This document shows, in pieces, positions 1 to 20,018 of a stretch of DNA of 20,018 bases (positions within the stretch are counted from its first letter, which is position 1; the number at the start of each line of letters is the position of its first letter). A program made the translations under genes and the position numbers. The DNA is from Cirrosporium novae-zelandiae. Lineage: Eukaryota. The stretch is taken from assembly GCA_026023565.1 (NCBI GenBank), contig JAPETS010000056.1, positions 124,001 through 144,018 on the forward strand, written 5' to 3'. A model generated the notes under the pieces. It saw nothing but the letters and a program-made list of their open reading frames with translations, was not told the DNA's origin and searched no databases.

Positions 1-1184
1 TCTACGGGGAGAACTATTTGGTGAATCTAGTGAACCAGAAAGGGAGAGAAGAGCGGGTAAAGAACGCTTATGAGCAGATGGTTCGGCTTTTGATGACTTC
101 CCCTCAAGAATCGACTGAAGCAGATTCCATGTCGAGGGAGAAGCTCCATGTTGTTCAGCCTGGCGGAAACCCCCAGAAACCGTTGGATCATCTACACTAT
201 GTATATTTCGACTTTCATAACGAAACCAAAGGCCTAAAGTGGCACCGTACCGATCTTCTTCTCGACCAGCTAATGAGTGGACTCAATAAGGGTGGATATT
301 TCCGTGCTGTAGATATGCCGGGCGATACTCAAGGACAGATGGATGTCAAAAAGGTGCAGACATGCGTCGTCCGCACCAACTGCATGGACTGCTTGGATCG
401 CACAAATGTTGTGCAAAGTATGCTTGCGCGCTGGGCCTTGAACCGACAACTCCTTGACCTTGGTATTTTACAGCCAGGCGAATCTGCCACGGATGACGTT
501 ACTTTTGATTTCACCTACCGTAATATTTGGGCCGATAATGCCGATGTAGTCGCAAAATCGTATACAGGCACCGGCGCCTTAAAAACGGACTTTACTCGCA
601 CCGGGAAGCGGACTCGGGCCGGTATGCTACAAGATCTTAACAACTCAATAACTCGATATTTGATGAACAACTTTTCAGATGGCCCTAGACAAGATGCATT
701 CGATCTTCTTCTCGGCACCTATCTTCCCTCGTCTTCTCCTTTCCCTAACGTTCCGCTTTTTGCTGATCGCAGGCCCACCATGGTTCAAGCAATTCCATAT
801 ATTTTCTTCGCAAGCATTTTCATGATTTTAGTTGCCACATTCACTCGGCGTCTTCCTGATGCAACTGTTTGGCCTCTTCGCCTGTTTGTCATCTTCTGGT
901 TCGTGGTCGGGGGTTGGTGTACACAATTCATGCTTTCGAATGGCATGCTCTACGTAAGTGGCTCTTTTTTCCTAATACGGAATCTTCTTGCACATAGACT
1001 TACAATTCATTAGGTAAACTGGCCCAAGCTCAACACGCCCCCATGGGCAAGTGAAGGTTTCCATGAAGCCCTTTCCAACGTCCGCAGGGACAAGGTCCTT
1101 GGACCCTTGATTAATGGACACGAGCGTGGGGTAAGCACCAGCAAACTAAGTCATCTAGAAGAAGGAAAAAAGAGGATTGAGTGA
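1..1184 (+). CDS. SAC1: Phosphoinositide phosphatase Sac1, 3' part (5' end lies outside the window)
   Basis: Frame open from base 3 (YGENYLVNLVNQKGRE). Catalytic CX5R motif RTNCMDCLDRTNVVQ, then WADNAD and YTGTGALKTDFTRTGKRT, and two C-terminal hydrophobic helices. Intron 954-1013 (GTAAGT..TAG); last exon VNWPKL...EEGKKRIE, stop 1182-1184. Confidence 0.96.
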
Positions 1185-1798
1185 TTAGAACCCTCGGTGT
1201 TAGGGGTTCTTGGAGGTTAGAGGCATGTGGGAAAGGCATTTCATTTTATGGGAACCGCGATGGGGGGCAGTTTATAGAGCTCATTCCGGGAAACAATTTT
1301 ATTTCAAGGTACTATGGTGTAATACATTCGAAATTGGTCACTTCACTTTATGTATTTCTTTCGATTGAATCGGTATAGCATGGATGAGTTTCGGCTGGGG
1401 GATACTGCTCACTTCAGGTAGCAGCTTTGACAGACAGTATAATTACCCAACCATCAGATCAAATTAAAATCGAGATAACATTTCGATAAGACTTGAAGTA
1501 AAATGATAACTCTAATAGACACACTTTGTAGCTATTTAGATGGTTCTATATTCAAAAACTTCGTTTTAGGCTTACATAATCATATACTATGGTATACTAT
1601 GGTACATGGACAACTAATGTATGTGATGAATATGACAAAGGTGGTTGATAAATTTATTTCATTTCTATTTTCTAAATCTATATATCTATGACGCTTGAGC
1701 ACAATAACCCTTAGGTAATTAAGGTAATTAAGGGTGGTGTTGAACCATTAAGATGTCCAAGAATAAGTCAATCTTTCGATATGGGTAATATCCATCTT

Positions 1799-3582
1799 TT
1801 AATTCTTAAGTGCTCCTTCCTTCTGGCTTTCCAAAACCTCCATCAGCCCTCCCACCAAATGCAGACTCCCCGTTGCAAGCACCCACGTATCACCATTTTT
1901 CACCTTCTCTTTTTTAGCAATATTTCTCGCCTCCTTAACAGCCTCCTCAATGCTACCGCAAACTCTAACATCAGTCCCCTCACCATTAATTTCCTTCCAT
2001 GTATTTGCAAGTTCTTTTTGTACGCGCAGCGCTTTGACATCTGCAGCAGACGTGTTGAGACTTACGAGATCTGGCGCATAATGCGACGATGAGGAGTTGG
2101 GGGCATATGTAATATTCGTTGTGAAGATTGCGTGTGTAAAGGGATGAAGATTATTTGTTTTGGGGTCCTTTGAAGTTGACGATGCGAGAACTCGATATAA
2201 TTCCCTTGCTAGAGCGGATGGATCTCGCTCTCGTGTTTGCTGATTAAACAACAATATCCTAGGTTGTTTCTGATTTGGATTCCCCGATAGAAGATTCCCG
2301 AACCAAGATGCTGCAACGTCTATACTTTCCACCGTATGCCCACCATCGAGGTGCCAGCGTATTCCCGTCTCAGGCTCAGGCCGGATTTCACAACGTCCGG
2401 GCCAATGTACGGAACTGAGGCCGACGACAAATTCATCGGGAAGAGGTGATGCCGGGGACTCTGATGGCGAGAGAGGTGTTGGAGGTGAGTACTTTAGGGC
2501 TCGGAGATGAGCCATGGATATAGCGATCGCAAGGCTGGCATTTGTTTTCTGGAAGTCTGCTGCAAGTCCTAGAGGGACTGTGGACAGAGCAGGGTGTCGG
2601 GGCACTATCGTCAATTGAGTATTTTTCTCTGCTGCGCGTTGCTTCAGGACCTCGAGAGCTGGTTCAGGCTGGGGAACGGTAAAGCAAGGGGATGATGGCT
2701 TCATAATGCCGGCTTTGTGCCAGGCGATTTCAGGGAGTGTAGACCCTAGCATGGCGACATGGTCGATGCCCAGAGTAGTGATTCCGGTAACCGTAGGGCG
2801 AGTGATGATGTTTGTAGAATCATATTCTCCACCAATACCACATTCGAGTATCACAGTATCAACACCCTCGGAGAGGTACGTATGTAGCGCCATCAATGTG
2901 AGAAAGCGAAAATATATAGGCTTGGTAGCAGGGGTGCTAACATCGAAGCTCGGGTCAGGGTTTTCTTTGCGTGCGGAGGCCTCGAGTCGGTCCCAAACTT
3001 CAAAGAAGTATCTGGCGAATAGAGATTCGGAGAGCGGGGCATTGTTTATTTGAATGCGCTCGCGGACAAAGCGCAGGTGTGGTGAAGTGTAGAGACCAAT
3101 TTTATTGATTGGTGGGGAGGGGTTGGTGGGGGTGGAAGTGAGATATTGGGAAAGAATGGAGGAGATAAAGGCCGAGGTACTGCCTTTCCCTTTGGTGCCA
3201 GCGACGTGAATTATATTCAAGCGATCGAAGTCGGAGGGCTGGAGAAGTCGTTAAGAGGAGGTGGTTTGGGAGGAGAATGGGGAAGTCGCACACCTGATAA
3301 CCAACTTTACTGCACCATTCTATCATTTCAGGTATGGCTTGTTTGTTCATACCACGGCCAGACTTCCGAATAGCATCAACTATAGCAAAGTTGGATTGGA
3401 GAGTATTCAATGCCTTTACAGCATCCTTGATCAACGAAGCAACCGAGTCAGAAGGGATCAAAATATTGGGGAATGACACTCACGGAATATGTTCGCTCCA
3501 TATTGGAAGGTGTACAGGAAAACTGGCGACGAGAGATTAATGGTAGAAGTTTGACATATGTAGATGCCCAGGACAGATTCAT
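1799..3582 (-). CDS. MET7: Folylpolyglutamate synthase (Met7/met-6 type); long form 556 aa from ATG 3582, short form 529 aa from ATG 3501
   Basis: Exons 3582(or 3501)-3484, 3425-3294, 3238-1799, with GT-AG introns 3483-3426 and 3293-3239. N-terminus MERTYSDAVKALNTLQSN, P-loop HVAGTKGKGST, LYTSPHL, LECGIGGEYDSTN, IAWHKAGIMK, WPGRCE, LDGGHT, TGSLHLVGG. Confidence 0.93.
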
Positions 3583-3905
3583 TAGAGTATCATGATGATT
3601 GAAATAAATGTTTAAATAATAATCTTGTCAGATGTACTGTACCTTCATTGGTCTTGTTAAGGTCAGCCTTATCAGATACTTTGGAGGGTTCAACAGCGGG
3701 ATGTCCCGCATTAAGATCGGAGAAGCAACTTGTAACGGGCTGGTCAAATGGGAGGAAAGAAGAAGCGAAAATTTTTAGGGATTGGTATTGATCTTCCCTC
3801 CGATAGCTTTTTTCTCCGGCTCTGAAGAGAGAAATCTCCACAAACACTCCACTCCACTCAATTATATTTAGATCTATTTCTTGACCCAGACCCTTTGCCA
3901 AAATA

Positions 3906-6480
3906 ATGAAGAGGGCGCAAGGAGCAGCCAAAGCGCAATTGCGCTCTATTTCTTTGGCTAGCAAACGTGTCTCATCTCGACCATCTCTGGAACCCTTCAT
4001 CTGCCGGAGATGCGCCTCAACTATTGCCCTTCGGCCTCAGAGGTTACAACAATTATCACTGGACAGAAGGTGGCAGCAACGGAGACTGCAGTCTGGTGCA
4101 GCTGCTCAGGTGTAAGCAAACTGAACAAAAAAAAATAGTCATCTGCCGAAACTAATCATATTTTAGTCTTGAACAAGCTACGGCGGATCCGGAAGCTTTA
4201 TCTCAGCAAACTATCGTTGAGAATTTGTCCCCGGAAGAAGCTGCGCGAATCTCCAAAGTTCGCAATATCGGTATAGCTGTGAGCAGGGTTTCAGTGCTCT
4301 TATACATGTCAAATTTTTGACCTCTTTTAGGCCCATATTGACAGTGGTAAAACTACCGCAACCGAACGTGTTCTCTTCTATACCGGCCGTATAAAAGCCA
4401 TCCATGAAGTCCGAGGGAAAGATGCTGTGGGCGCAAAAATGGATTCTATGGATTTGGAACGTGAAAAAGGTATCACAATTCAATCTGCAGCTACATTTTG
4501 CGATTGGATGAAGAAAGAGAATGGCCAAGAGGAGAAATACCATATCAATCTGATTGATACACCTGGCCATATTGATTTTACAATTGAGGTTGAACGTGCT
4601 TTGCGAGTTCTGGATGGTGCAGTAATGATCCTTTGTGCTGTCTCAGGTGTTCAAAGTCAGACAGTTACTGTGGACAGACAGATGAGGAGATATAATGTTC
4701 CCAGGGTATCATTTATCAACAAGATGGATCGTATGGGGGCGAACCCATTTAAAGCTGTCGACCAGATTAACCAGAAATTAAAGTTACCGGCAGCCGCTAT
4801 CCAAGTACCCATTGGCGGAGAGGATACTTTTAAGGGCGTTGTGGATATTATCAGGATGAAGGCCATATATAACGAGGGAGAAAGTGGGGAAATTATTGTA
4901 GAGAAAGATGAAATTCCTGAGGATGTCAAACCCATAGCGGAGAAAAGAAGGAAGATACTCATTGAGACACTAGCCGATGTCGACGACGAAATAGCGGAGC
5001 TATTTCTAGATGAAAAAACACCCTCCCCTGAACAAATAAAAGCTGCTATCCGTCGAGCCACAATCGCCCTGAAGTTCACACCCGTTCTGATGGGGTCTGC
5101 TTTGGCGGACAAGTCTGTGCAGCCAATGCTTGATGCCGTATGCGATTACCTCCCCAACCCCGCCGAAGTCGAGAACTTGGCATTGGACCAACGACGTAAA
5201 GAGGCCGAAGTGAAGCTCATCCCATACAACTCTCTTCCGTTTGTTGGGCTTGCATTTAAATTGGAGGAAAGCAACTTTGGCCAACTTACATATATCCGTG
5301 TCTACCAAGGTAATATTCGGAAAGGTATGCATGTCTACAATGCTCGTACCAGCAAAAAAGTCAAGATTCCTCGCATCGTACGGATGCACTCCAATGAAAT
5401 GGAAGAAGTTTCCATCATTGGTGCCGGCGAGATCTGTGCTGTCTTTGGTGTCGACTGTGCTTCAGGGGATACATTCACTGACGGTACTCTTGGCTACACC
5501 ATGTCATCCATGTTTGTCCCAGAGCCTGTCATATCTCTCTCAATTAAGCCTAAGAACAACAAAGATACTGCCAACTTCTCCAAGGCCATGAGCCGATTCA
5601 ATCGTGAAGACCCTACATTCCGTGTTCATGTTGATCCCGAATCTCAGGAAACTATTATCTCTGGAATGGGTGAACTCCATCTCGATGTCTATGTTGAGCG
5701 TATGCGTCGTGAATATAAGGTAGACTGCGAGACCGGAAAGCCCCAAGTTGCCTATCGCGAAACCGTTACACAAAAGGTACCATTTGATCACCTTCTTAAG
5801 AAACAGACTGGCGGTGCTGGTGATTTTGCTCGTGTCATGGGATGGATGGAACCTACTGGCTCCCTGGACAAGAATCAGTTCGAGGAACAGATTCATGGTG
5901 GTACCATCTCAGAAAAATTCTTATTTGCCTGCGAGAAAGGATTCAATGCGTCTTGTGAAAAGGGACCTCTTCTTGGACACCGAGTCTTGGGTACAAGGAT
6001 GGTTATCAATGACGGTGCTACGCACATGACGGATTCCTCAGAAATGGCCTTTAGGAATGCCACCCAACAAGCTTTCCGAAAAGCATTTGCGGAAGCAAAA
6101 CCAGCCGTGCTAGAACCACTGATGAAAACAACCATCACCGCTCCCAATGAGTTTCAAGGAAATATTGTTGGTCTGCTAAATAAAAGAAATGCAGTTATTA
6201 ATGACACCGAAATTGGACCTGAGGATTTTACAATTTACGCCGACTGTAGCCTGAACTCCATGTTTGGATTTAGCAGTCACTTGAGAGCAGCCACACAAGG
6301 AAAAGGAGAATTCACCATGGAGTTTTCTCACTATTCTCCTGCACCGATGCAAGTACAGTAAGTCCCCTCGAAGCATTTCAACTTCTCAGCCTAGTTTTTT
6401 GCTAACCCCTTATTTTTACGTTGTATAGAAAGGAGCTCATTGCCGCCCACGAGAAGCAAAGACTTGCCGCTAAGAAATAA
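3906..6480 (+). CDS. MEF1: Mitochondrial translation elongation factor G1, about 798 aa
   Basis: Exons 3906-4111, 4167-4278, 4331-6357, 6429-6480. Arg/Ser-rich presequence; [15 protein letters not shown] joined across intron 2; [58 protein letters not shown]. Confidence 0.97.
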
Positions 6481-7343: not shown

Positions 7344-8624
7344 ATGGGTGAGAAACGCAAAAACCCTCCACGCCATCGCACCTTCGAACCTTCATCCAAG
7401 AGGCGGGTGTCAGGAACACCGCGACAACAAACTCCCCCTCCCCCAAAGTTAGAGGATCTTCTGCCTACGAAAATTGAGGATGATACCTTGATACCAACGC
7501 TCCCTACTCCTCAATCAAACGACCTTTCGACAAAAAAATATCAGTCTGTGAGAGAGAGGTACGTCTAGAAGCTTTACATATTTTGCAAATAGGAAATTAA
7601 TATTTTATGATTCGATAGTGGTGTCCTTCCTGCGGCGATCAATCGTTCGAAACAAAGGTGGATATTCGATGGCATTCTTGAGCGATACTGGGTTAAGCCT
7701 TCCAGATCTAAGAAAGTACAGCAAAGCCAGCCTGAAGTCAACAATCCTCCAAGGGAATCAATGGTGAAATTTGGAAATTGTACGGTCATTATTGAACCTC
7801 ATATTTTCGAGACGACTCTATACACTGTGAAGGATCCTCAGAGCTTTCAACAGGTTCAATATAACCATAGTCATACTCCACCCGTTCCACAGAAAACTGG
7901 TAGTGGGTATGGCCATGGTCAGCAATATCCCACCCCTAGTCCATATGCGAATGGACCAGCGCAACAGATCCAGCAATACCCGCAGAACCAGAAACCATTT
8001 TCACAGCAGAATCCACAATATCAACCCCCACAAGGTCCACCGAGATCTCAGACCCCTCAACGACCTCCAAGTGGGGCTGGATACCGCCCTCCCCCACCTC
8101 AGCCACTTGAACCTCAAGCTCAAGCAAATCATTACCATCCACCACTTAACCAAGGGGCATCGCCATATCCACATCATCCACAAGCTCATAGACCTGTACA
8201 TCACCCTCCACCAGCGGATCCGGTGCCTCACCCGAAACCAAGCCCTGATCCTGTGATTCAAATGCTCGCTACACGTGCGGCCACAGATCCAGAGTTAAAA
8301 CAACTCATGCGAGTTGTCGCAGCAAGTCAAGCTACGCAAGCACAGTTGAAGCAATTCCAGGCACATATTGATGAGCTAAACGCCATTATAGCTTCACAAC
8401 AAGCAGCCAAGGCCGCAGAACAAGCACCTACATACAGACCTCCTCAATCTCCTCCACCGCCACAGGTGCAGTCCTATTCTCAACAGCTGCCCCAATCACA
8501 TCAGCAACTTCCCCCAATGAATATTGGATACAATCAACCAGGTCCACCACCTCCTCGTTCCTCAACTCCTCAAATGAAGCATGAAAACCCCCCATACACC
8601 CCTAAACCCCCACAACACTTTCAA

Positions 8625-8722
<98 letters not shown>

Positions 8723-9572
8723 ACATCGAAAACAACAACCGCTACCACAAGTCCATCCCCAAATTCAACCCTATCCTCCACCTCCCTCACGTGCGGTGCA
8801 ATCCCGTCCTCCACCCCCACCTCATCCACATAAGTCTGAACTTGCAACGGTGTTGCTGGAATTTGCTTCCGGAAATGGAGACCGTTTCTTGTTCCCTAAA
8901 AATAGTATTTTGGATTATTTGGGAGATAGGACGCAAGTTGTTGTCAGCTTTTTGGTAGTACACGAGGGTCATAAACCAGACATTCCCGTTGGCACTACCA
9001 AGGAGGCCAATTCCAGTGCCAGGAGTACGAAAGAGACAAAAACGCCAAGCAAGTCAGCTACTAGCCACCCACCGTCTTCGTCATCTAAGAAAGAGAAAGA
9101 GCCAGCTACAAAGCAAGGACAGGAAAAAGAAAAGGAAAAAGACAAACATACCCCCTCAAAAGATAGCAAAGCCGCCACCAAGGAAGCACAGAAAGTCGAA
9201 CCTTCAAGCTTTAACAAGCCTCTTTCCACATCCTCCAAATCTTTCTACCAGCCAATAACCATCCGTCTTTCCGCCCCTACTGCCAAAACTCTGGAACCCC
9301 TGGCCAAGGCCGTACACCCTGCCGATGAGGTACGGAAATACATGGAAGATATTATGGATAAGATGGAGCGTGCCGATGGGGAGGGCGTTTTCTTGGCGCC
9401 GCGGTTGCCAAAAGATGAGAGCGGGGAAGGGGGTCCTGTTAATATCGGAAGTCTACAAGATGACGATACGACGAAGGAGAAAGTAGAGGCGTTGAAGGGG
9501 AGGTATGAGGGACCTAGCAGTGTTTTCCCTTTAAAAGAGGGAAGCCATTGGGCAGGGTGGGTTGTTGTATGA
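7344..9572 (+). CDS. SWC3: SWR1 chromatin-remodelling complex subunit Swc3-like protein, about 722 aa, Pro/Gln-rich
   Basis: Exon 1 7344-7558, intron 7559-7618 (GTACGT..TAG), exon 2 7619-9572. Blocks YQSVRESGVL...ERYWVKP...NPPRESMVKFGNCTVIIEPHIFE, PDPVIQMLATRAATDPELKQLMRVVA, DRFLFPKNSIL and YQPITIRL match filamentous-fungal Swc3 as I recall it. Confidence 0.8.
8622..8723 (+). repeat. Coding microsatellite: (CAACAG)15 core at 8625-8714 within a 34-residue polyglutamine tract
   Basis: Read directly: 34 consecutive CAA/CAG codons in the SWC3 frame. Confidence 0.98.
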
Positions 9573-9842: not shown

Positions 9843-11295
9843 TCAATAACTAGTATCAATCCACCCCTTGTACCCACTACCGAACAATGTCGTTTTAGTA
9901 ACCGCAGAAGTTGTAGATGTTTCGTATTCCCTCTCTGAAGTGTCAGAGCCATCTCCTGAGTTCTCATATTCTTCAAAAGTTCTATCTTCCCTATTAGCAG
10001 TGACTAATAAATGGTTTATGATGTACGATGCAATGACTTACGGAGTAGCACCATCCGCCATTGTCGCCCAGCCTTTCGGGTTGATGATATCGGAAAGAGT
10101 TGAATACTGATATATGACTCGTGCAAGAACTCTCCATGGTCTTCCAAGGTAAACATCCTCTTCAAGATCATAGCCAGATGCCGCTTTCACTGTGCTGTGA
10201 TCAATTACATACCTTCAACGTGCATTAGCTCCACAATATAATGGTTCAATGGAGAGTACGGACCAGGCATCATCTGTTGACAATTGACGGCTATTCGCTG
10301 TGATGTAACCTGCACCATTTGCTGCAATTGTACCTAGGACATGATTAATAATTAAACATAAAAGGGGGACTTGTGGCTTACATTCTCCAAACCAAGCAGC
10401 CGCATCACCAAAGATAAAGTCAACCGCACCTAGAGAAATATTATAAGCATACATCCAAAGTTTGAATGCTAATAAGTACCACCAGCGCCCATTATGGTTG
10501 GACTGATTAATGGTTCTTTTGGAGTCCAGGAGGTCATTAGGGGAGGGACACAGTGTCGGTTCTCACCTTCTATATAGCAATTGGAATAATACTGATTGCC
10601 AGCTTTGGCGTACAATGTATCCTGGTATCCAGAAAAGGAGCAACCATAGTAGCCTTGATAGTCACCGTTTGCAGTCACTGCAACAGCCTAGCAACATGGA
10701 TGCCAGAAGTCAGGGACTGGGGACCAAACTTAAGTGCCAGTGCGTACTCACCTGCGAGCCAGAACCATAACTATTCTCGAAGTTGATGTTGTAGACTTTG
10801 ACATAATCGCCTTTAAATTGAACCGTAGAGCTGGCATCTAGGCTACCGGCTGCTGACGAAGTCTCGCTATGTGTAAAGGTTACTACATTCTTCTTGTAGC
10901 TTGAGGTACTGATTGTTAATGTCAGCGACTGGAATGCGAATAAGTGAAGAATATTAGTCCAACTCTGATGTGTAACCGTAAAGGGTCAAATTTCCACCAT
11001 AGTCAATGATGACTTGTTCTGTATATGTTCCCTAAACCGATCAAATCAGTACAAGTACACTTTTGTTACAATAATAAAAGGGCCAAACCGAGTAAATAAA
11101 GATGCAAGCATCATCAGTTGAACTTCCTAGACTGTCAACGGCATCACCTAAAGAACTATATTCCCCAGTTCCAGTACTAGATCCTCGAACGACTAAACAA
11201 TTGTCAGGATTGCTAGTTCGGCCAGTTCTTTTGATAAGATGCGAAGAACCCCCTAGATTCCACAAAGCGAAGAGGAAGAGATGTTGGATCTTCAT
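9843..11295 (-). CDS. Secreted pectin methylesterase (pectinesterase, CE8), about 326 aa, 8 exons
   Basis: Exons 11295-11089, 11031-10964, 10908-10752, 10687-10567, 10429-10382, 10333-10264, 10212-10042, 9981-9843; all phases fit with GT-AG introns. Signal peptide MKIQHLFLFALWNLGGSS; CE8 motifs GTYTEQV, QAVAV, GYQDTLY, IEGAVDFIFG, YLGRPW. Confidence 0.93.
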
Positions 11296-11766: not shown

Positions 11767-11991
11767 TCCAATTCTGGTAATTTGCGCAACCGACGTTAAT
11801 TAAGCACATCACCAGTTTCATCAATAATATTCCGGTCTGCCGTTTGAATCAAGATGGGACATTGGACTGAGATTAGTGGTATATCCAGACTCAATCATCA
11901 ATCTTTGACGATTATTTAAAAGTTGTTGCCATGCTTTTTTCATGTATGCTTATGCTTGTTGATATTTACTACGGTATGTCCATTTGAGAAG

Positions 11992-13218
11992 ATGGCAATC
12001 CTCGATAGTTTGGCTTGCCTCTTGGTTCTTTTCGGAGCCTTGGTTAATGGTACTGCAACACATGTTGACCATCATCCTTCTCGAGTCGTGAAGCGAGCTA
12101 GCACTTGCACACCGTCTTCAGCACAGAACGCGGGAACCGACGATGTTGCTGCAATCGAGTCAGCCTTCTCCAAGTGCGGTGACGGTGGAGTCATTGTTAT
12201 TCCTTCAGGCATAACCTATGCCATTCGAAGTACTTTGGACTTCACCGGTTGCTCCAACTGTGACTTCCAGATCGAAGGCACGCTCAAAGTCTCGGACGAT
12301 ATCGATTACTGGGATGGTGTCACCGCCATATTTTCCGTGTCTGGCATAACCAAAGCCAAAATTCGTTCTCTGACTGGCTCCGGAGTCATCGATGGCAACG
12401 GTCAGGACTTCTGGGACGAGTTCGCCACAAACAGTGACTTTGATCGCCCAACACTCTTTTACATCACCAAGTCCTCCGGTATCACCGTTGAAAACCTTTA
12501 TTTCAAAAACGCGCCCAACGTATTCCACTCCGCCGTGGGCAGTTCTACCAACATCGTCTACAAAGACATCACCTTGAAGGCGACATCAAAAAGCGACAAC
12601 GACCCTAAAAACACGGATGGCTGGGACATTGGTCCAGCTTCCTATGTAACCATCACCAATGCCACAGTCACAAACGACGATGACTGCGTAGCTTTCAAGC
12701 CCGGTGCCAATTATGTGACTGTCGATACCATCACCTGTAAAGGCTCTCATGGTCTCAGCGTTGGTAGTTTAGGCAAGACAAACACTGACACTGTCAAAAA
12801 TATCTACGTGACGAATGCAAAGATGATTGATTCTACCAAAGCTGTCGGCATAAAACTCTACCCCGGCGGATCTTCTCACGGCACCGGCGTCGTCTCAAAT
12901 GTCACCTGGGACGGTGTTGTCGTCTCTGGTTGCGATTATGCCGCCCAGATTCAGAGCTGCTATGGTGAGGACTCTGACTACTGTTCTTCATACCCATCCA
13001 CTGCTACAGTTACGGATGTTTATTTCAAGGACTTTAGCGGCACCACAAGCAGCAAATATGAGCCTGTTATTGCCAATATCGATTGTCCGGCTGATGGAAC
13101 CTGTGATGTGTACTTTGAGGATTGGACTGTAAAGCCGCCGAGCGGAACAGCGGAATATCTCTGTGCCAATATTGATAGTACGCCAGGAATAACATGTACC
13201 GATGGAGCATCCGGGTAG
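11992..13218 (+). CDS. xghA: Secreted GH28 endo-xylogalacturonan hydrolase, 408 aa, intronless
   Basis: ATG 11992 starts signal peptide MAILDSLACLLVLFGALVNG, with a KR propeptide site. GH28 motifs NTDG, NDDDC, GSHG and GIK (in place of RIK). RSLTGSGVIDGNGQD, QIQSCYGED and the C-terminal CTDGASG closely resemble Aspergillus XghA as recalled. Confidence 0.9.
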   Translation: MAILDSLACLLVLFGALVNGTATHVDHHPSRVVKRASTCTPSSAQNAGTDDVAAIESAFSKCGDGGVIVIPSGITYAIRSTLDFTGCSNCDFQIEGTLKVSDDIDYWDGVTAIFSVSGITKAKIRSLTGSGVIDGNGQDFWDEFATNSDFDRPTLFYITKSSGITVENLYFKNAPNVFHSAVGSSTNIVYKDITLKATSKSDNDPKNTDGWDIGPASYVTITNATVTNDDDCVAFKPGANYVTVDTITCKGSHGLSVGSLGKTNTDTVKNIYVTNAKMIDSTKAVGIKLYPGGSSHGTGVVSNVTWDGVVVSGCDYAAQIQSCYGEDSDYCSSYPSTATVTDVYFKDFSGTTSSKYEPVIANIDCPADGTCDVYFEDWTVKPPSGTAEYLCANIDSTPGITCTDGASG

Positions 13219-13858: not shown

Positions 13859-14831
13859 CCTGCAAGAAACAATAGTTGGTCGTAGAGATGAAAAAGACCA
13901 ATCGTTGTAAAACCTTTCGATTGTGTAAGAGGTGATGAAGAAGGCGAAAGCAAATGAAAAATGTTTTGTTGGTTGAGTATAGGTCAATAGAAATGATTTT
14001 TTATCTCAAATGGTGGTAACCTTTTATATACACCTTCTTTCTTATCTCCAATGTATTTATTGTGAGTCAAACCGCCAGCTTGAATCAAATTGCTTGATTC
14101 AAATGCATGGATGTTGATTGGAATAAAGCCAGAAGTTGAAATATTTATGTCATTGGTGTTAGATAGACGCTCAAACCTATGGTGTTTGGATAAATATAAC
14201 AAGCATTAGAATAAGATTTTTAGTATGATTTATTTACTAAGAGTTGACCTGTTTGACTCTAAGACTCTTGAAATTGTTCTATGATGAAATCTTTCTTGAG
14301 ACTTCTTTGTTGCTTCTGAAGCCGTATGTACTCACTGTCTAGCCTTTATCCAACAAGCCCTAAACAAGCCCTAGAAAATTCTAGAGTGTGACTAGAATAA
14401 ATTAGTAGATGCCTTAACCTAATCGAAGGCTTAGACCTCAGGCTAGTTTTGGAAGAGCTTAATATGTATTACAAGTAGATGATATGACTTTCTTTGTATT
14501 GCTTTGTGGTGCTTTATCCTATGTAAAGTAATACTATAAGACGCTTCGGAACTGGTTAGATATATTAAGAGCGGATGAGATTAGCTAACAAACAAAACAA
14601 AGAATAAAATTATCTATTCAAAAGTTAGTTCCTATGTAGTGTAGTAAATAATTGGCTCGAAGCCTTTAATGCCTTAAAACAGAAAAATAATTCTATTAGA
14701 ACAAAGAGTTAACAGCAGCTTTGTTGATATGAAGAATATCTTCTCTGATGGTTATAAGCTTCTAGACAATGTTCAACACATAAGATTCCAACCGGAAAGA
14801 AGTATCTGATATCTTCATAAGGACTGCCGAA

Positions 14832-15998
14832 ATGATTGACCCAAAATTCCGGTTTGCGACTGAATCTGGAGCGTTAAGCCCTGAAGGCCCTCATACTTGG
14901 GTGGTCCTTGATTATGATCAGCGACGTCGGTACCTATTAACTGGATCCGCAGAGATATTCCCCGAACACGATTACACAAAGGCTCCAGAAATTCTTGCTA
15001 AATATATCAACCGTCTTGAACCTGAGGTGCGTTCATTGAATATTTCTGATGATGGTGCGCTTGAAAATACCTCAACCGATGATACAAATGGCTTGCTTGA
15101 AAGCCCTATCTATTATCCTCATTATTCTGGAGAGGACGGCCATATTTTAGAGAGGTCCCAGCTCATAGAGCTTGACCGACTCGCCTCGGGAATTGATCTT
15201 GTGCGCGCTAAGGGCAAACTCGTGGCGTTTAAATACGCTCTCACCAGTCCGTCTGTGATGAGAGTATGGAATGAGATGCATATTATAAAAGCGCTAAAGG
15301 GACATTCATCTTTTGTTCCTTTTCAACAAGCTATAATTGATGAGGTGGAACCTAGGCTCTTAGGGTTCACAACCTTGTTTATGCCCGCTGGAACTCTGCA
15401 AGACAACGAAACCATACCTTTTCATTTCCACTGGCTGCACCAACTCACCTCGGCTGTCGATGACTTGAATCTGAGATTCGGAATCATGCACCGAGACATC
15501 GTCCCAAGAAATGTGGCTATTGACCTAGGGAAAACAAAGCGAGCAGTTCCGAATCTAAAGATTTTTGATTTCAACATCGCCCACCAAATTGGGGTCCTAC
15601 CCGAAGAAAACTCCTTGGACGATATTGATGGGGTGGTTTTGACCGTTTACGAAGCATTAACTCGGGACACCAGGTGCCAAGACATTACAGATAAGAAACC
15701 ATTTATTAAGGAAATAGAAGGTCTAACTCGCTGGAAATCGAAGGCTTCAATCGAATATGGCTTCGGTGGAGTTGCAGGATATCGACGCTTCTTAAGCAAA
15801 TGGGCTATCAATCGGAGAAACATTAGAAGAATTACACATTACTCTCAGGCAACAGAACCTATTGACTGGCCTAAATTTCTCCACTTGAACAAGGTTCCTG
15901 TTGAGAAGTGGCCAACACGCATCATTCCTTGGGAGAGAGAGCCGGCAGCTCAATTGGCTACTTTGGACCGTGGGTCTAACACTGGTCTGAGTGAATAG
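14832..15998 (+). CDS. Atypical fungal protein kinase-like protein, 388 aa, intronless
   Basis: VAFK (subdomain II Lys), WNE (helix C Glu), catalytic loop HRDIVPRN and IFDFN (DFG variant); no Gly-rich loop or APE motif visible. Confidence 0.85.
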   Translation: MIDPKFRFATESGALSPEGPHTWVVLDYDQRRRYLLTGSAEIFPEHDYTKAPEILAKYINRLEPEVRSLNISDDGALENTSTDDTNGLLESPIYYPHYSGEDGHILERSQLIELDRLASGIDLVRAKGKLVAFKYALTSPSVMRVWNEMHIIKALKGHSSFVPFQQAIIDEVEPRLLGFTTLFMPAGTLQDNETIPFHFHWLHQLTSAVDDLNLRFGIMHRDIVPRNVAIDLGKTKRAVPNLKIFDFNIAHQIGVLPEENSLDDIDGVVLTVYEALTRDTRCQDITDKKPFIKEIEGLTRWKSKASIEYGFGGVAGYRRFLSKWAINRRNIRRITHYSQATEPIDWPKFLHLNKVPVEKWPTRIIPWEREPAAQLATLDRGSNTGLSE

Positions 15999-16904
15999 AA
16001 ATTTCTTCAAATGGGAAGCTTTTCCTTTTAATCTTTGACTAATGGTAGTTGATTAGGAAACGTTGACGAAACCCAAAATAAAGGAGGCAGAAAGTACAAA
16101 ATTTTGAACTTATTTATGCTGATGCTAGAAGGAAACGAGCGACTGAATTGGGGTTTCTGAGTATTAATGTAACTGGATGATTTCTAAAATTAATTGGCAA
16201 ACGCGTTTGTTATTTTGAAATTTAATAACATAACTTTCCTTCTGGCCCCTTTAAGAGTGATGGCTCTTATTACCTTTAAAGGCTTATGCGGCTTCTGACC
16301 AGTATACCTAGCATTTCGAACGAGATAACCTGCATTCCAGGTATGACAGGAAGACGATAGATGCAAGATATAGAAATGAAGGTTGTAGCTTTCATAATCA
16401 CCAACCCCAATGATATTGGATCAAGAACAACCTTGATTGAGCAGGTCTACAATCTTGGGATGAGGTTTGGTGTGAGTGGTATTCTTAGGAAATGATAATT
16501 GTAAAGAGAAAGCCTCAATAGCTATGAACAAATTCTGACTATTGTGAGTAGACTCGAATGTAAGTAAAGTTTGAATTTTTTTTTAAGAAAAAATAATAGA
16601 ATAAAACCAGTAATAGTCACAACGGAAGAAAAATCTAAATTAACTAGTCTTAGGACATACATCTCTGGCTGGTAGAGTGAATTTATAATGAAGTTAAGTT
16701 TAAGATACTGACCGTTAACGCCACACCGCTAGAGTCAACGTTCGGAGAGGAATCAAGAAAATATAATTGGATAGGCCTTGAATGTCCTAAAGAACTTTAA
16801 GCTCAACTGTAAAACTTCCCTGCAGGATGAGCATAAAGCCAGACGTCGCTAGTTTGTCACTTGCTCGATCCTCAAACATATTCGATGGAGGTAACAGAAG
16901 CGTC

Positions 16905-17290
16905 TATTTGAAGCATCACGATAATATAATTATTATATTCTGACCGATGATTAAAGCAAAATTACTAGCATTATTAATCCACAATCAACACGTTTCATTC
17001 TAGCCTGCAAGGCATTTGGGCCCTCAGTGATTGTGGATTTCAGTGCATTGATGGAAGATGAATTGGCAGTTATTAACGACCATATAATCATTTCTCAGCT
17101 GCTAGACTAGGCGACAAATGTGCTGCTGGCCGCTTGGTTGAAACTGCAGCGTTAAGTGATGGAGCTCCCTAATTTCATTTTGACATGATAAGTAGTGCAA
17201 CTTGGGAAGATGGGGCTGAGTAACCTGGGCTTGCTGATCGCATCTGGTGTTCATAAAACAAAGATCTAGGAATAGTGGAAAGCAGATAGG
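16905..17290 (+). pseudogene. Decayed fragment of a fungal APH/choline-kinase-like phosphotransferase gene
   Basis: YLKHHDN, frameshift, YILTDD*SKITSIINPQSTRFILACKAFGPS, then FHFD in another frame. Resembles the recalled family motif FLKHVDDKGDHILVDDxxxITGIIDWQxARxVPAxEAFGPS; several stops and frameshifts. Confidence 0.55.
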
Positions 17291-18233
17291 CCGTTCAGAT
17301 CTGCTAGAGACCTAAGGCTTTTGATACAAGAGCAGACATAAATACTAATGACGCTGGTCATGTAAGATCTTGAGTATAATAGACTAGCTATTTCCATTTA
17401 TAACTATTGCCTTTGCAAGCCTTTCCGTAGACTTCCTTATAATATGTATACTCTACAAGCCCAGGCACTGTGGTTAGTTGAGAACTAGATCACACGAAGC
17501 CTCTTTCATCTCAAATGTGGCTTCTAGCAGGGAGATCTCCATGTCGATGTTCCGGAATATTCCGTTCTAAGATTAGATAATAGATGGCATATTTTTCATA
17601 GATTTAATGCTACAGTACATCCCTCCACGGAAAAGAAAACGTTGCGAGGTATCTACAAACTACCATCCAAATCAAGGCAATACCTTCACAGTAGTAGACT
17701 ATATAGTACCTATCCTGGCTGCACTCCCGACAACACCAATAATCCGAACGACCCTTACAAGTCTCTGTGTTGGGTTTCTTATGGAGGATAGCTCTGCTCT
17801 CCACAGAAGAATAGTGCTGGCAATAAGTGCCGTAACGAGCCTTCAGCTAAGTACGAAGTTCCATAATACAGTATTACTATCTAGCCATGGTACAAGATGC
17901 TGCCTTAACTCCAGCACTAAAATAATAATTTAGTGCTTGCTTCTCTGCTGTCGGGGGCTAAGCTGGGGTGGCTGATCTTAGCTGTCCATGTAGGAATGCC
18001 ATGTCGCATCCTGAACTCGACGTCAGGTCATTTGTAGCTGACCTCAATTATTTATTGGTGACGGACCAACTTGTGTGGTATTTGGCAGATGATTTTATGT
18101 GAACTGATGGAAATGAATGTGTAGTTCATTTCGAATTTCAATCTGCACACTTTCGATCCATACACAACCATTCCGATTCTGCCATTTTATCCTACCCCCC
18201 CAAGACCTAAAGTCCTCTCTCAGGAACTCCCGA

Positions 18234-18250
18234 GAAAAATAAAATAAAAA
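18234..18250 (-). terminator. Pol III oligo(dT) terminator of the 5S gene
   Basis: Plus-strand A-runs (AAAAATAAAATAAAAA) abut the 5S 3' end, giving T-runs on the transcribed strand. Confidence 0.8.
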
Positions 18251-18369
18251 ACATACAACAGTCGGGATTCGCTGGTCGTCACCGACCCAACTACTAACCG
18301 GCCGGTCTGGAAGTTATGTATGGCAGAGCGGACGGGATGCCCAGTTCTTTCCAGCCTATGGTCGTATGT
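18251..18369 (-). rRNA. 5S rRNA: Dispersed 5S rRNA gene (119 nt)
   Basis: Minus strand reads ACATACGACCATAGGCTGGAAAGAACTGGGCATCCCGTCCGCTCTGCCATACATAACTTCCAGACCGGCCGGTTAGTAGTTGGGTCGGTGACGACCAGCGAATCCCGACTGTTGTATGT, with terminal stem ACATACGAC/GTTGTATGT. TTATA element about 24-28 nt upstream; oligo-T directly downstream. Confidence 0.96.
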
Positions 18370-19388
18370 ATCCTAATGTGTGAGTAGTAAGGTATAAGAC
18401 TGAGAGAGTGACAGGTATGAAGGTAGGCTCGAAGCGACTGGCAACCTTGCCGAAGAGGCCAGACGTTACTTATTTGAATACACATAACAACCGGAAAAAC
18501 ATATTGAAGGTTAATAGATCTCTTTGCATCGATTAATTAGAGACTCAGTTTCGATCCAAACGATATTTTCTTTGTCCAAGTACTTTTACATGGCTATGTC
18601 TCGTAAAAGGCATATGCTCAAATCCTTGCTATCATGTCTACTGAATGGCAATCCCCACATCACCCCGCGTTGAACATTAGTTGATTATCCCTAGCATCGA
18701 GTCTCCTGAGTGTGGGGGGTTTGGGGAGATCCAGCCTTACTTGGTATAGAATATACCCCATATCGTTAGACTGTTTATTTAGATAGTACGCTAAGTTTTT
18801 TATGGTAACATTACATCATAAGCTAAAGTTATCAGCGAGACCTTTTATTTGAGTATTGTCATAATACTACGCTTGTTCTTTCCAACTCGAGAGTTTTATA
18901 ACAGGTTTTTGCTACGGAATACTATGTACCAATCAGATCAGACTGTCTCGGCATAGCAGTACGACTTCACTTCCTCAAACTAAGTAAGTCCACCACCAAT
19001 CTCTTGACAATATTCCCGAAGTGCTACCACAAGCTAGCGACAATGAATCCCTAGTTCTCTAGTTCTCCATCAGACTTTCCATGAATTACCTAAATTCCAC
19101 ATCCCCGCCCTTTAGTATGGACACTCACGTTAGAAAGTCTACCCGGGATATCTTGACATTATCTCGCCATGCAGAAATCACCATACCGAATAGTGGATAT
19201 GTACGAGCTTGAAACCGGCTCACGCGCCATGATCTCTCTTTCTATCTATTACTTATTGTGCTGTAAAAGCTGTTACCACCTGATAGACATTTCTATACTC
19301 TCGCATTCTGTAAGTATCCTCAAAGAAATAAGTTGCATAATAAATTAGGACTGTTTTTTATTATATTGTGGTCTTCATCAGACTTGCT

Positions 19389-19892
19389 ATGCATTCAGTC
19401 TCGATTCTAGTTGCCTTTGCTGTGGTTACGCAACTCTATCATGTGGATGCCCAGGTAGTGTATGCCCCGGTAAATGGTACTACCACTCGTCCATGCTCGT
19501 CCTATGCGTCAGCGAAACCTACCTATGTCTTTTCTTCATTCGGTTGGACAGTTACAGAGACTGTTAGAACAGCCACATCCGTGTCTGCGCCAACCGGACC
19601 TGCTCAAACCTACGCTCATTCGTATGACCAACTCAGCCACCCTGTTCCAAACATCAGCACGACCACATGGGGTAGCTTTTTCCCAAACAATACCCCCAGT
19701 GCGCCAACGGACACCGCGGACCCGTATGGACAAGCAGCATGGACAGCACTCTGGCAACGAGCAGACATAAAGAACTTTACATCTATTGGCCTATACACCA
19801 CAACTGTTAGTCCTACGCCTGTCCCAAAAACTGACCTAGTATTGCCACCAAGAGATTACTTTGGACCAACTGATTGCTATAACTTTCTTGAT
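19389..19892 (+). pseudogene. 5' fragment (168 codons) of a secreted GH1 beta-glucosidase-like gene, truncated by the telomere
   Basis: ATG 19389; signal peptide MHSVSILVAFAVVTQLYHVDA-Q; then TTTWGS, DPYGQAAWTALW and GLYTTTVSPTPVPKTDLVLPPRDYFGPTDCYNFLDG. This matches the N-terminal extension of fungal secreted GH1 proteins as recalled, ending where the barrel motif FPxxFxFGxA would start. Absent from the ORF track, probably because it has no stop codon. Confidence 0.8.
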
Positions 19893-20018
19893 GGGTTAGG
19901 GTTAGGGTTAGGGTTAGGGTTAGGGTTAGGGTTAGGGTTAGGGTTAGGGTTAGGGTTAGGGTTAGGGTTAGGGTTAGGGTTAGGGTTAGGGTTAGGGTTA
20001 GGGTTAGGGTTAGGGTTA
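19893..20018 (+). repeat. Telomere, (GGGTTA)21 = TTAGGG-type tract with the G-rich strand running 5'->3' to the end
   Basis: 126 nt of perfect hexamer repeat reaching the end of the window, in the orientation expected for a right chromosome end. Confidence 0.97.

Follow-up and report, generated by a model that had tools for sequence, protein, structure and literature searches.

Does the right-hand end of this contig of Cirrosporium novae-zelandiae correspond to the physical end of a chromosome and, if so, how did a telomere come to stand inside the coding sequence of a beta-glucosidase? Here, we address both questions in a window of 20,018 nt, by which we mean the whole stretch of DNA that was analysed. 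Our findings favour a model, to which we give a probability of roughly three in four, where the contig stops at a real chromosome end, left by a terminal deletion and healed by de novo telomere addition. Four parts of this model are what we infer from the data: that the end is physically terminal, that telomerase was the enzyme at work, that a seed was used, and that the distal sequence was lost rather than relocated.

The window closes on 21.0 perfect units of GGGTTA (TTAGGG), 126 bases on the forward strand at 19893-20018, with a period of 6, 100% matches, no indels and a score of 252 (Tandem Repeats Finder). This array matches the repeat reported for other Pezizomycotina, and its G-rich strand runs 5' to 3' toward the right-hand contig end, the orientation of a true right-hand chromosome end. 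A 12-mer probe of two repeat units, allowing at most one mismatch, found 19 matches in the window, all of them on the forward strand at 19896-20015; 100 shuffles led to an expectation of 0.07 matches, and none of them reached 19. Outside the array, the same probe revealed no degenerate or interstitial telomere repeats in the window. T19892 breaks the phase of the repeat and the perfect array begins exactly at 19893, just as the earlier note had described it, including the want of degenerate units. One unique base and then 126 bases of repeat make up the final 127 positions of the contig (19892-20018), and de Bruijn assembly at k=127, as in SPAdes practice, yields such an end when a unique path enters a tandem repeat. 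The last 127-mer of the contig starts at the last unique base, which implies reads that span the junction and reach at least 126 nt into the perfect repeat. The 21 units are a lower bound on the true length, as the contig stops inside the repeat. Native Pyricularia telomeres are described as having 20-30 repeats (PMC8381367), a span in which the array of at least 21 units falls.

What the array adjoins is the 5' fragment of a gene for a secreted GH1 beta-glucosidase (19389-19892, forward strand; P0001), recognised from its open reading frame and its homologues. The frame opens with an ATG at 19389, runs for 168 codons, ends at 19892 and enters the repeat in frame; the codons quoted in the earlier note (GAT TGC TAT AAC TTT CTT GAT GGG TTA GGG, at 19876-19910) are indeed present and open. 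Read on in the gene's frame, the telomere repeats encode (Gly-Leu)n with no stop codon. The fragment has a signal-peptide-like start (MHSVSILVAFAVVTQLYHVDAQ), behind which lies an N-terminal extension of about 145 aa, typical of fungal GH1 enzymes of about 620 aa, and it ends with the residues CYNFLD. A protein similarity search with the fragment gave 239 matches at E<=0.001 among 783 candidates. The domain PF00232 is present in all of the 120 matches listed out of these 239 (E down to 1.1e-46); among the 120 listed, identity is 48-62% over 79-100% of the fragment, and most are proteins of 570-670 aa that their sources call beta-glucosidase or GH1. The closest homologue of the fragment is only 62% identical and no conspecific intact allele occurs in the collections searched, so that the truncation is read from distant homologues, belonging to other classes, rather than from a conspecific allele. 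Within the class Xylobotryomycetes, Cirrosporium forms a family of one genus, and one re-analysis treats Cirrosporium novae-zelandiae as a single, early-branching representative (PMC12238968); this isolated position fits the lack of close homologues.

An alignment of 15 homologues, about 620 codons long in every case (15 of 15), matches the fragment along its whole length, signal peptide and extension included, and runs on past the break as CYNF[P/L]x[D/G/T]FxFGVAGSAxQIEGA. Residue D168 of the fragment aligns with residue 166 of a 621-aa homologue (P0003), whose Pfam GH1 match begins at residue 163, corresponding to profile position 4 of 453. The earlier note had placed the telomere inside a GH1 beta-glucosidase coding sequence, at the start of the barrel, and that is where this alignment sets it: the fragment ends at about profile position 6 of 453, with some four residues of the GH1 domain left. 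It represents the 5' 27% of the conserved gene of about 620 aa; about 455 residues are missing, including both catalytic motifs (the NEP and TEFG segments of the homologues). Pfam, run on the 168-residue fragment itself, returned 0 families even at E<=10. Signal peptide and extension are thus common to the stump and to full fungal enzymes of about 620 aa such as P0003 and P0010, whereas the barrel with NEP and TEFG is absent from the stump. Homology of the remaining part attests descent from a GH1 gene; a GH1 enzyme comprises the barrel with the acid/base (NEP) and nucleophile (TEFG-type) glutamates, and the fragment has none of these. The locus is thus the 5' stump of a GH1 gene and no enzyme. 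Promoter-proximal and without a stop codon, this stump is most likely a non-functional pseudogene.

The stored gene call at this locus (19389-19895; P0242, 169 aa, equal to P0001 plus one G) ends one codon into the repeat, with the residues FLDG, and stops short of the contig end; in the annotation, a gene that is truncated biologically thus passes for an ordinary partial model. It surfaced only in the similarity search, the exact look-up of four possible fragment products in the protein collection having found none. A "partial" gene at a contig edge is, in this case, most likely truncated biologically, and the stump should not be scored as a GH1 enzyme when CAZymes are counted or completeness is estimated from such assemblies.

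Upstream of the stump, Pfam recognised a SacI-homology phosphatase exon (3-1013, forward strand), a gene of the Mur-ligase type, folylpolyglutamate synthase-like (1799-3250, reverse strand), and a long exon of mitochondrial EF-G (4331-6361, forward strand), 87% identical to its closest match beyond that of Cirrosporium novae-zelandiae itself (100%). These housekeeping genes (1-6400) lie 14-20 kb from the repeats, a proximity compatible with a shortened chromosome arm, though no proof of one. They are followed by a Swc3-like protein with a long poly-Q tract (7611-9572, forward strand; Pfam), where a CAACAG repeat at 8625-8725 (16.8 units, 96% matches) encodes the poly-glutamine run. Further on are a weak hint of a pectinesterase (10215-10562, reverse strand; Pfam E 0.0098, below the curated cut-off), a GH28 polygalacturonase (11920-13218, forward strand; Pfam) and a kinase-like ORF, also a weak hint (14784-15998, forward strand; Pfam Pkinase, 26.7 bits, below the curated cut-off). 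The last 10 kb hold plant-cell-wall enzymes, namely GH28, the tentative pectinesterase and the GH1 stump. Between 16 kb and 19.4 kb no convincing gene was found besides a complete 5S rRNA gene (18250-18369, reverse strand; Rfam RF00001, 66.6 bits, model positions 1-120 of 120), and a tRNA scan of the window found none. In agreement with the earlier note, nothing of a subtelomeric kind separates gene and telomere: a repeat search in 16000-19892 gave only short two-copy matches and no subtelomeric repeat family, Pfam matched no helicase family in 20 window ORFs (20 of the 41 ORFs of at least 90 aa plus some shorter ones), and no transposon was seen in the last 4 kb.

The 5S rRNA gene stands 1.5 kb from the telomere. 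In the public run that contains this DNA (X1), the depths of the contigs matching this gene sum to about 46,600, versus about 430-460 in the flanks, which indicates that 5S copies are many and dispersed. Two runs from other organisms of the same study, X2 and X3, match the 5S region as well and, with one exception, nothing else. The exception is X2, which also matches the last bin before the repeats (19813-19904, the last 92 nt), with a contig of depth 18.7 at >=80% likeness; this contig may be a GH1 orthologue of the conserved LPPRDYFGPTDCYNF stretch. A short repeat of about 63 nt (17546-17608) has copies, with 5-6 differences, in two other long contigs of X1. In an X1 contig of depth 360.9, position 17611 is followed at once by 18241, with 629 nt omitted; the joint suggests that the short repeat adjoins a 5S copy elsewhere, and that 17612-18240 was either inserted here or deleted there. 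It may also be a repeat artefact, as its short side is only 25 nt long.

Is the junction real, and is it the main form in the sample? The record from which the window comes is labelled a metagenome-assembled genome, a label that implies short-read assembly. A chimeric join would be one way in which such a record could mislead; another would be healing confined to some nuclei or individuals of the field sample, the intact gene being the main allele. Only a single public run, X1, contains the stretch (0.99 of sampled words) and may be the assembly's own source; since it probably is, contigs from X1 are not independent support, and contigs in general show presence, not absence. With this in mind, the Logan contigs (k=31) of X1 were compared with 17000-19904 of the window at >=80% likeness. 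The junction between unique coding sequence and telomere array (19892-19893, forward strand) is crossed by a single unbranched contig of 1592 nt, which spans 18331-19904 with 0 differences and 0 gaps and extends 18 nt past 19904; it thereby holds 30 nt of repeat, the maximum for a contig at k=31. The depth of this contig is 458.8, no lower than the 388.2 and 427.9 of the flanking single-copy contigs. All bins in 18455-19904 sum to exactly 458.8, so no other X1 contig is present there at >=80% likeness, be it an alternative continuation of the gene or a second copy of the 5' fragment, and the X1 loose ends listed include none at the junction. An identical intact copy elsewhere would double the depth and split the contig at 19892, and neither is indicated. 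An unbranched contig at full depth means that the telomere-joined form is the main form in the sample and that there is one copy of the 5' fragment. Rare variants are dropped from contigs, which also lack local depth, and a minority intact allele would escape this comparison. Two assemblies with different k, that of the window and that of Logan, share the same junction, and the path at k=127 requires reads that hold the junction and 126 nt of repeat together. Continuation of most reads into GH1 coding sequence was the outcome set beforehand as contrary to the proposal of the earlier note, and at contig level, in this one run, no X1 contig continues so. All considered, a chimeric join or a minority state strikes us as very unlikely.

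A genuine junction could still lie inside a chromosome. The contig would then merely stop in an interstitial tract, whether an internalised telomere, a fusion or a repair scar, and other DNA would follow. In fact, any tandem repeat longer than k halts both assemblies, so that the contig end alone is no proof of a chromosome end; moreover, internalised telomeres are known in Pyricularia (PMC8381367). Yet the same source describes internal tracts of more than four repeats as extremely rare, against the at least 21 perfect units seen here, and the array is oriented as at a true right-hand end. The gene also breaks off right where the array begins, and an insertion would account for this only if the remainder of the gene lay beyond the repeats. 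We therefore hold an interstitial location to be improbable, slightly more so than the possibility that the end is real but gained its telomere without telomerase priming. This would have occurred by break-induced replication (BIR), by recombination within the repeats or by the end-joining of a telomeric fragment. The junction alone cannot identify the enzyme, and BIR and NHEJ are described as alternative repairs of naked ends in Pyricularia (PMC7367193). However, BIR that copies another chromosome end usually carries over subtelomeric sequence, and none stands between gene and repeats; strand invasion would need homology, of which at most 5 nt are available at the break; and from the first unit onward the array shows neither imperfection nor shift of phase. 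Telomere capture of this sort is accordingly rated as unlikely.

Terminal deletion followed by de novo telomere addition remains the reading that we prefer. The junction has two marks of a healed end: the organism's own telomere repeat lies at the end of the sequence, with the G-rich strand outward, and the repeats abut sequence that is internal in unbroken homologues, without subtelomeric elements between. A double-strand break, or gradual erosion once a telomere had failed, would have removed the chromosome tip as far as codon 168 of a subtelomeric gene for a secreted GH1 beta-glucosidase, and with it the whole catalytic barrel and everything distal. The exposed 3' end, probably with 1-5 nt pairing to the telomerase RNA template, may then have been extended by telomerase with TTAGGG, and the array would have grown to at least 21 units, a stable new telomere. 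Breakage with de novo TTAGGG telomeres is described in Zymoseptoria tritici (PMC6510446); such repair is already well documented in fungi and no new mechanism is involved here.

The homologue columns next to the break bear on the seed. After the residue aligned with D168, the 15 homologues have D in 10, G in 4 and T in 1, followed by F in all 15. Depending on the codons, the overlap of native text and repeat could have been anywhere between 1 nt (G, with GAY) and 5 nt (GGGTT, with GGG TTY): the D-G-F of 4 of the 15 homologues could give GGGTT, while the commoner D-D-F shares the first G only. GGGTT at 19893-19897 (forward strand) is thus the maximal native sequence that may have served as telomerase seed, and a seed of this kind, as the earlier note proposed, is possible, as would be a shorter one or none at all. 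Of 24 de novo telomeres described in Pyricularia oryzae, 19 extended seeds of 1-4 nt, and even one T could be enough (PMC7367193). By analogy, a D-G-F or a D-D-F seed would each fit the seed lengths of that species.

How does this end compare with known systems? In Pyricularia (Magnaporthe) oryzae (rDNA telomere, MoTeR truncations, AVR-Pita loss), TTAGGG is likewise added directly to non-telomeric sequence after loss of the tip. Nested truncations among Pyricularia strains are read as erosion and healing, with loss of end genes to follow (PMC8381367). Unlike in that species, we deal here with one event, in a field-sample genome from a distant and little-studied lineage; no telomeric retrotransposon or rDNA stands at the end, no progenitor allele is at hand for comparison, and the break lies inside a CAZyme gene. 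Zymoseptoria tritici is alike in being a filamentous ascomycete with TTAGGGn at breakpoints, recognised from short-read data (PMC6510446). Its events are reported from laboratory populations, mostly of a histone methyltransferase mutant, with pulsed-field gels and Southern blots (PMC6510446), whereas the Cirrosporium end is known from short-read contigs alone. In accounts of dnTA and SiRTA in Saccharomyces cerevisiae and fission yeast, telomerase similarly acts at a resected break, on a short TG-rich or template-matching seed, and leaves a terminal deletion. Yeasts differ in repeat type and regulation, and by eye no hotspot-like TG-rich tract is visible upstream of the Cirrosporium junction. 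On balance, the Cirrosporium end is most likely a healed chromosome end as in Pyricularia, Zymoseptoria and the yeasts. It would be a clean natural case, from an uncultured and phylogenetically isolated ascomycete, of a chromosome end that cuts through a gene, and would indicate that terminal truncation and re-capping occur outside the few model and pathogen species where they have been described.

How old is the truncation? Of the alignment columns, 36 are invariant among the 15 homologues and 71 are shared by at least 13 of them; the fragment conforms to all 36 and to 61 of the 71. Its leave-one-out score (0.86) is the lowest of 16, the next being 0.88 (P0010), which is no sign of decay given the isolated lineage. 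Neutral evolution was simulated as substitutions on 504 nt, with indels ignored, the outcome scored being an open frame with all 36 positions kept; the probability of this outcome fell from 0.157 at 0.02 substitutions per site to 0.062 at 0.03 and to 0.027 at 0.04. If the stump has been unconstrained, the simulation would make the truncation younger than roughly 3-4% neutral divergence. The recent event proposed in the earlier note is therefore only loosely sustained: the frame without stops and the 36 intact columns speak for it, but the bound, at about 0.03-0.04 substitutions per site, makes "recent" hold on an evolutionary scale only, and a very recent or somatic event is not implied.

The stump might also not be dead, in that loss of the GH1 enzyme was selected in the wild lineage, or that the N-terminal piece is expressed beside the telomere and kept as a small secreted protein. 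An expressed stump, if true, would account for the open frame and all 36 invariant positions being intact; its transcript and translation would pass into the repeats as (Gly-Leu)n, with no stop. We give this idea very little credence. The predicted structure of the fragment alone (91-row alignment) has a mean pLDDT of 60.0 and a pTM of 0.23, with almost no regular secondary structure besides the signal helix, and lends no support to an autonomous fold, being too weak to weigh for or against one.

The extension itself was also considered as a family of independent small proteins. A search for it as a stand-alone product gave 37 matches at E<=0.001 among 66 candidates, the window's own product included; the matches inspected (4 of 36) continue into the GH1 barrel and look partial, and the idea was rejected. 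By sequence, the PDB gave a single match to the fragment, at E 0.59, which was disregarded. With neither a Pfam family nor a PDB relative by sequence, the extension of about 145 aa is nonetheless kept across many classes in secreted fungal GH1 enzymes, with 17 invariant columns in 91 sequences; it is an unannotated conserved region that probably packs on the barrel.
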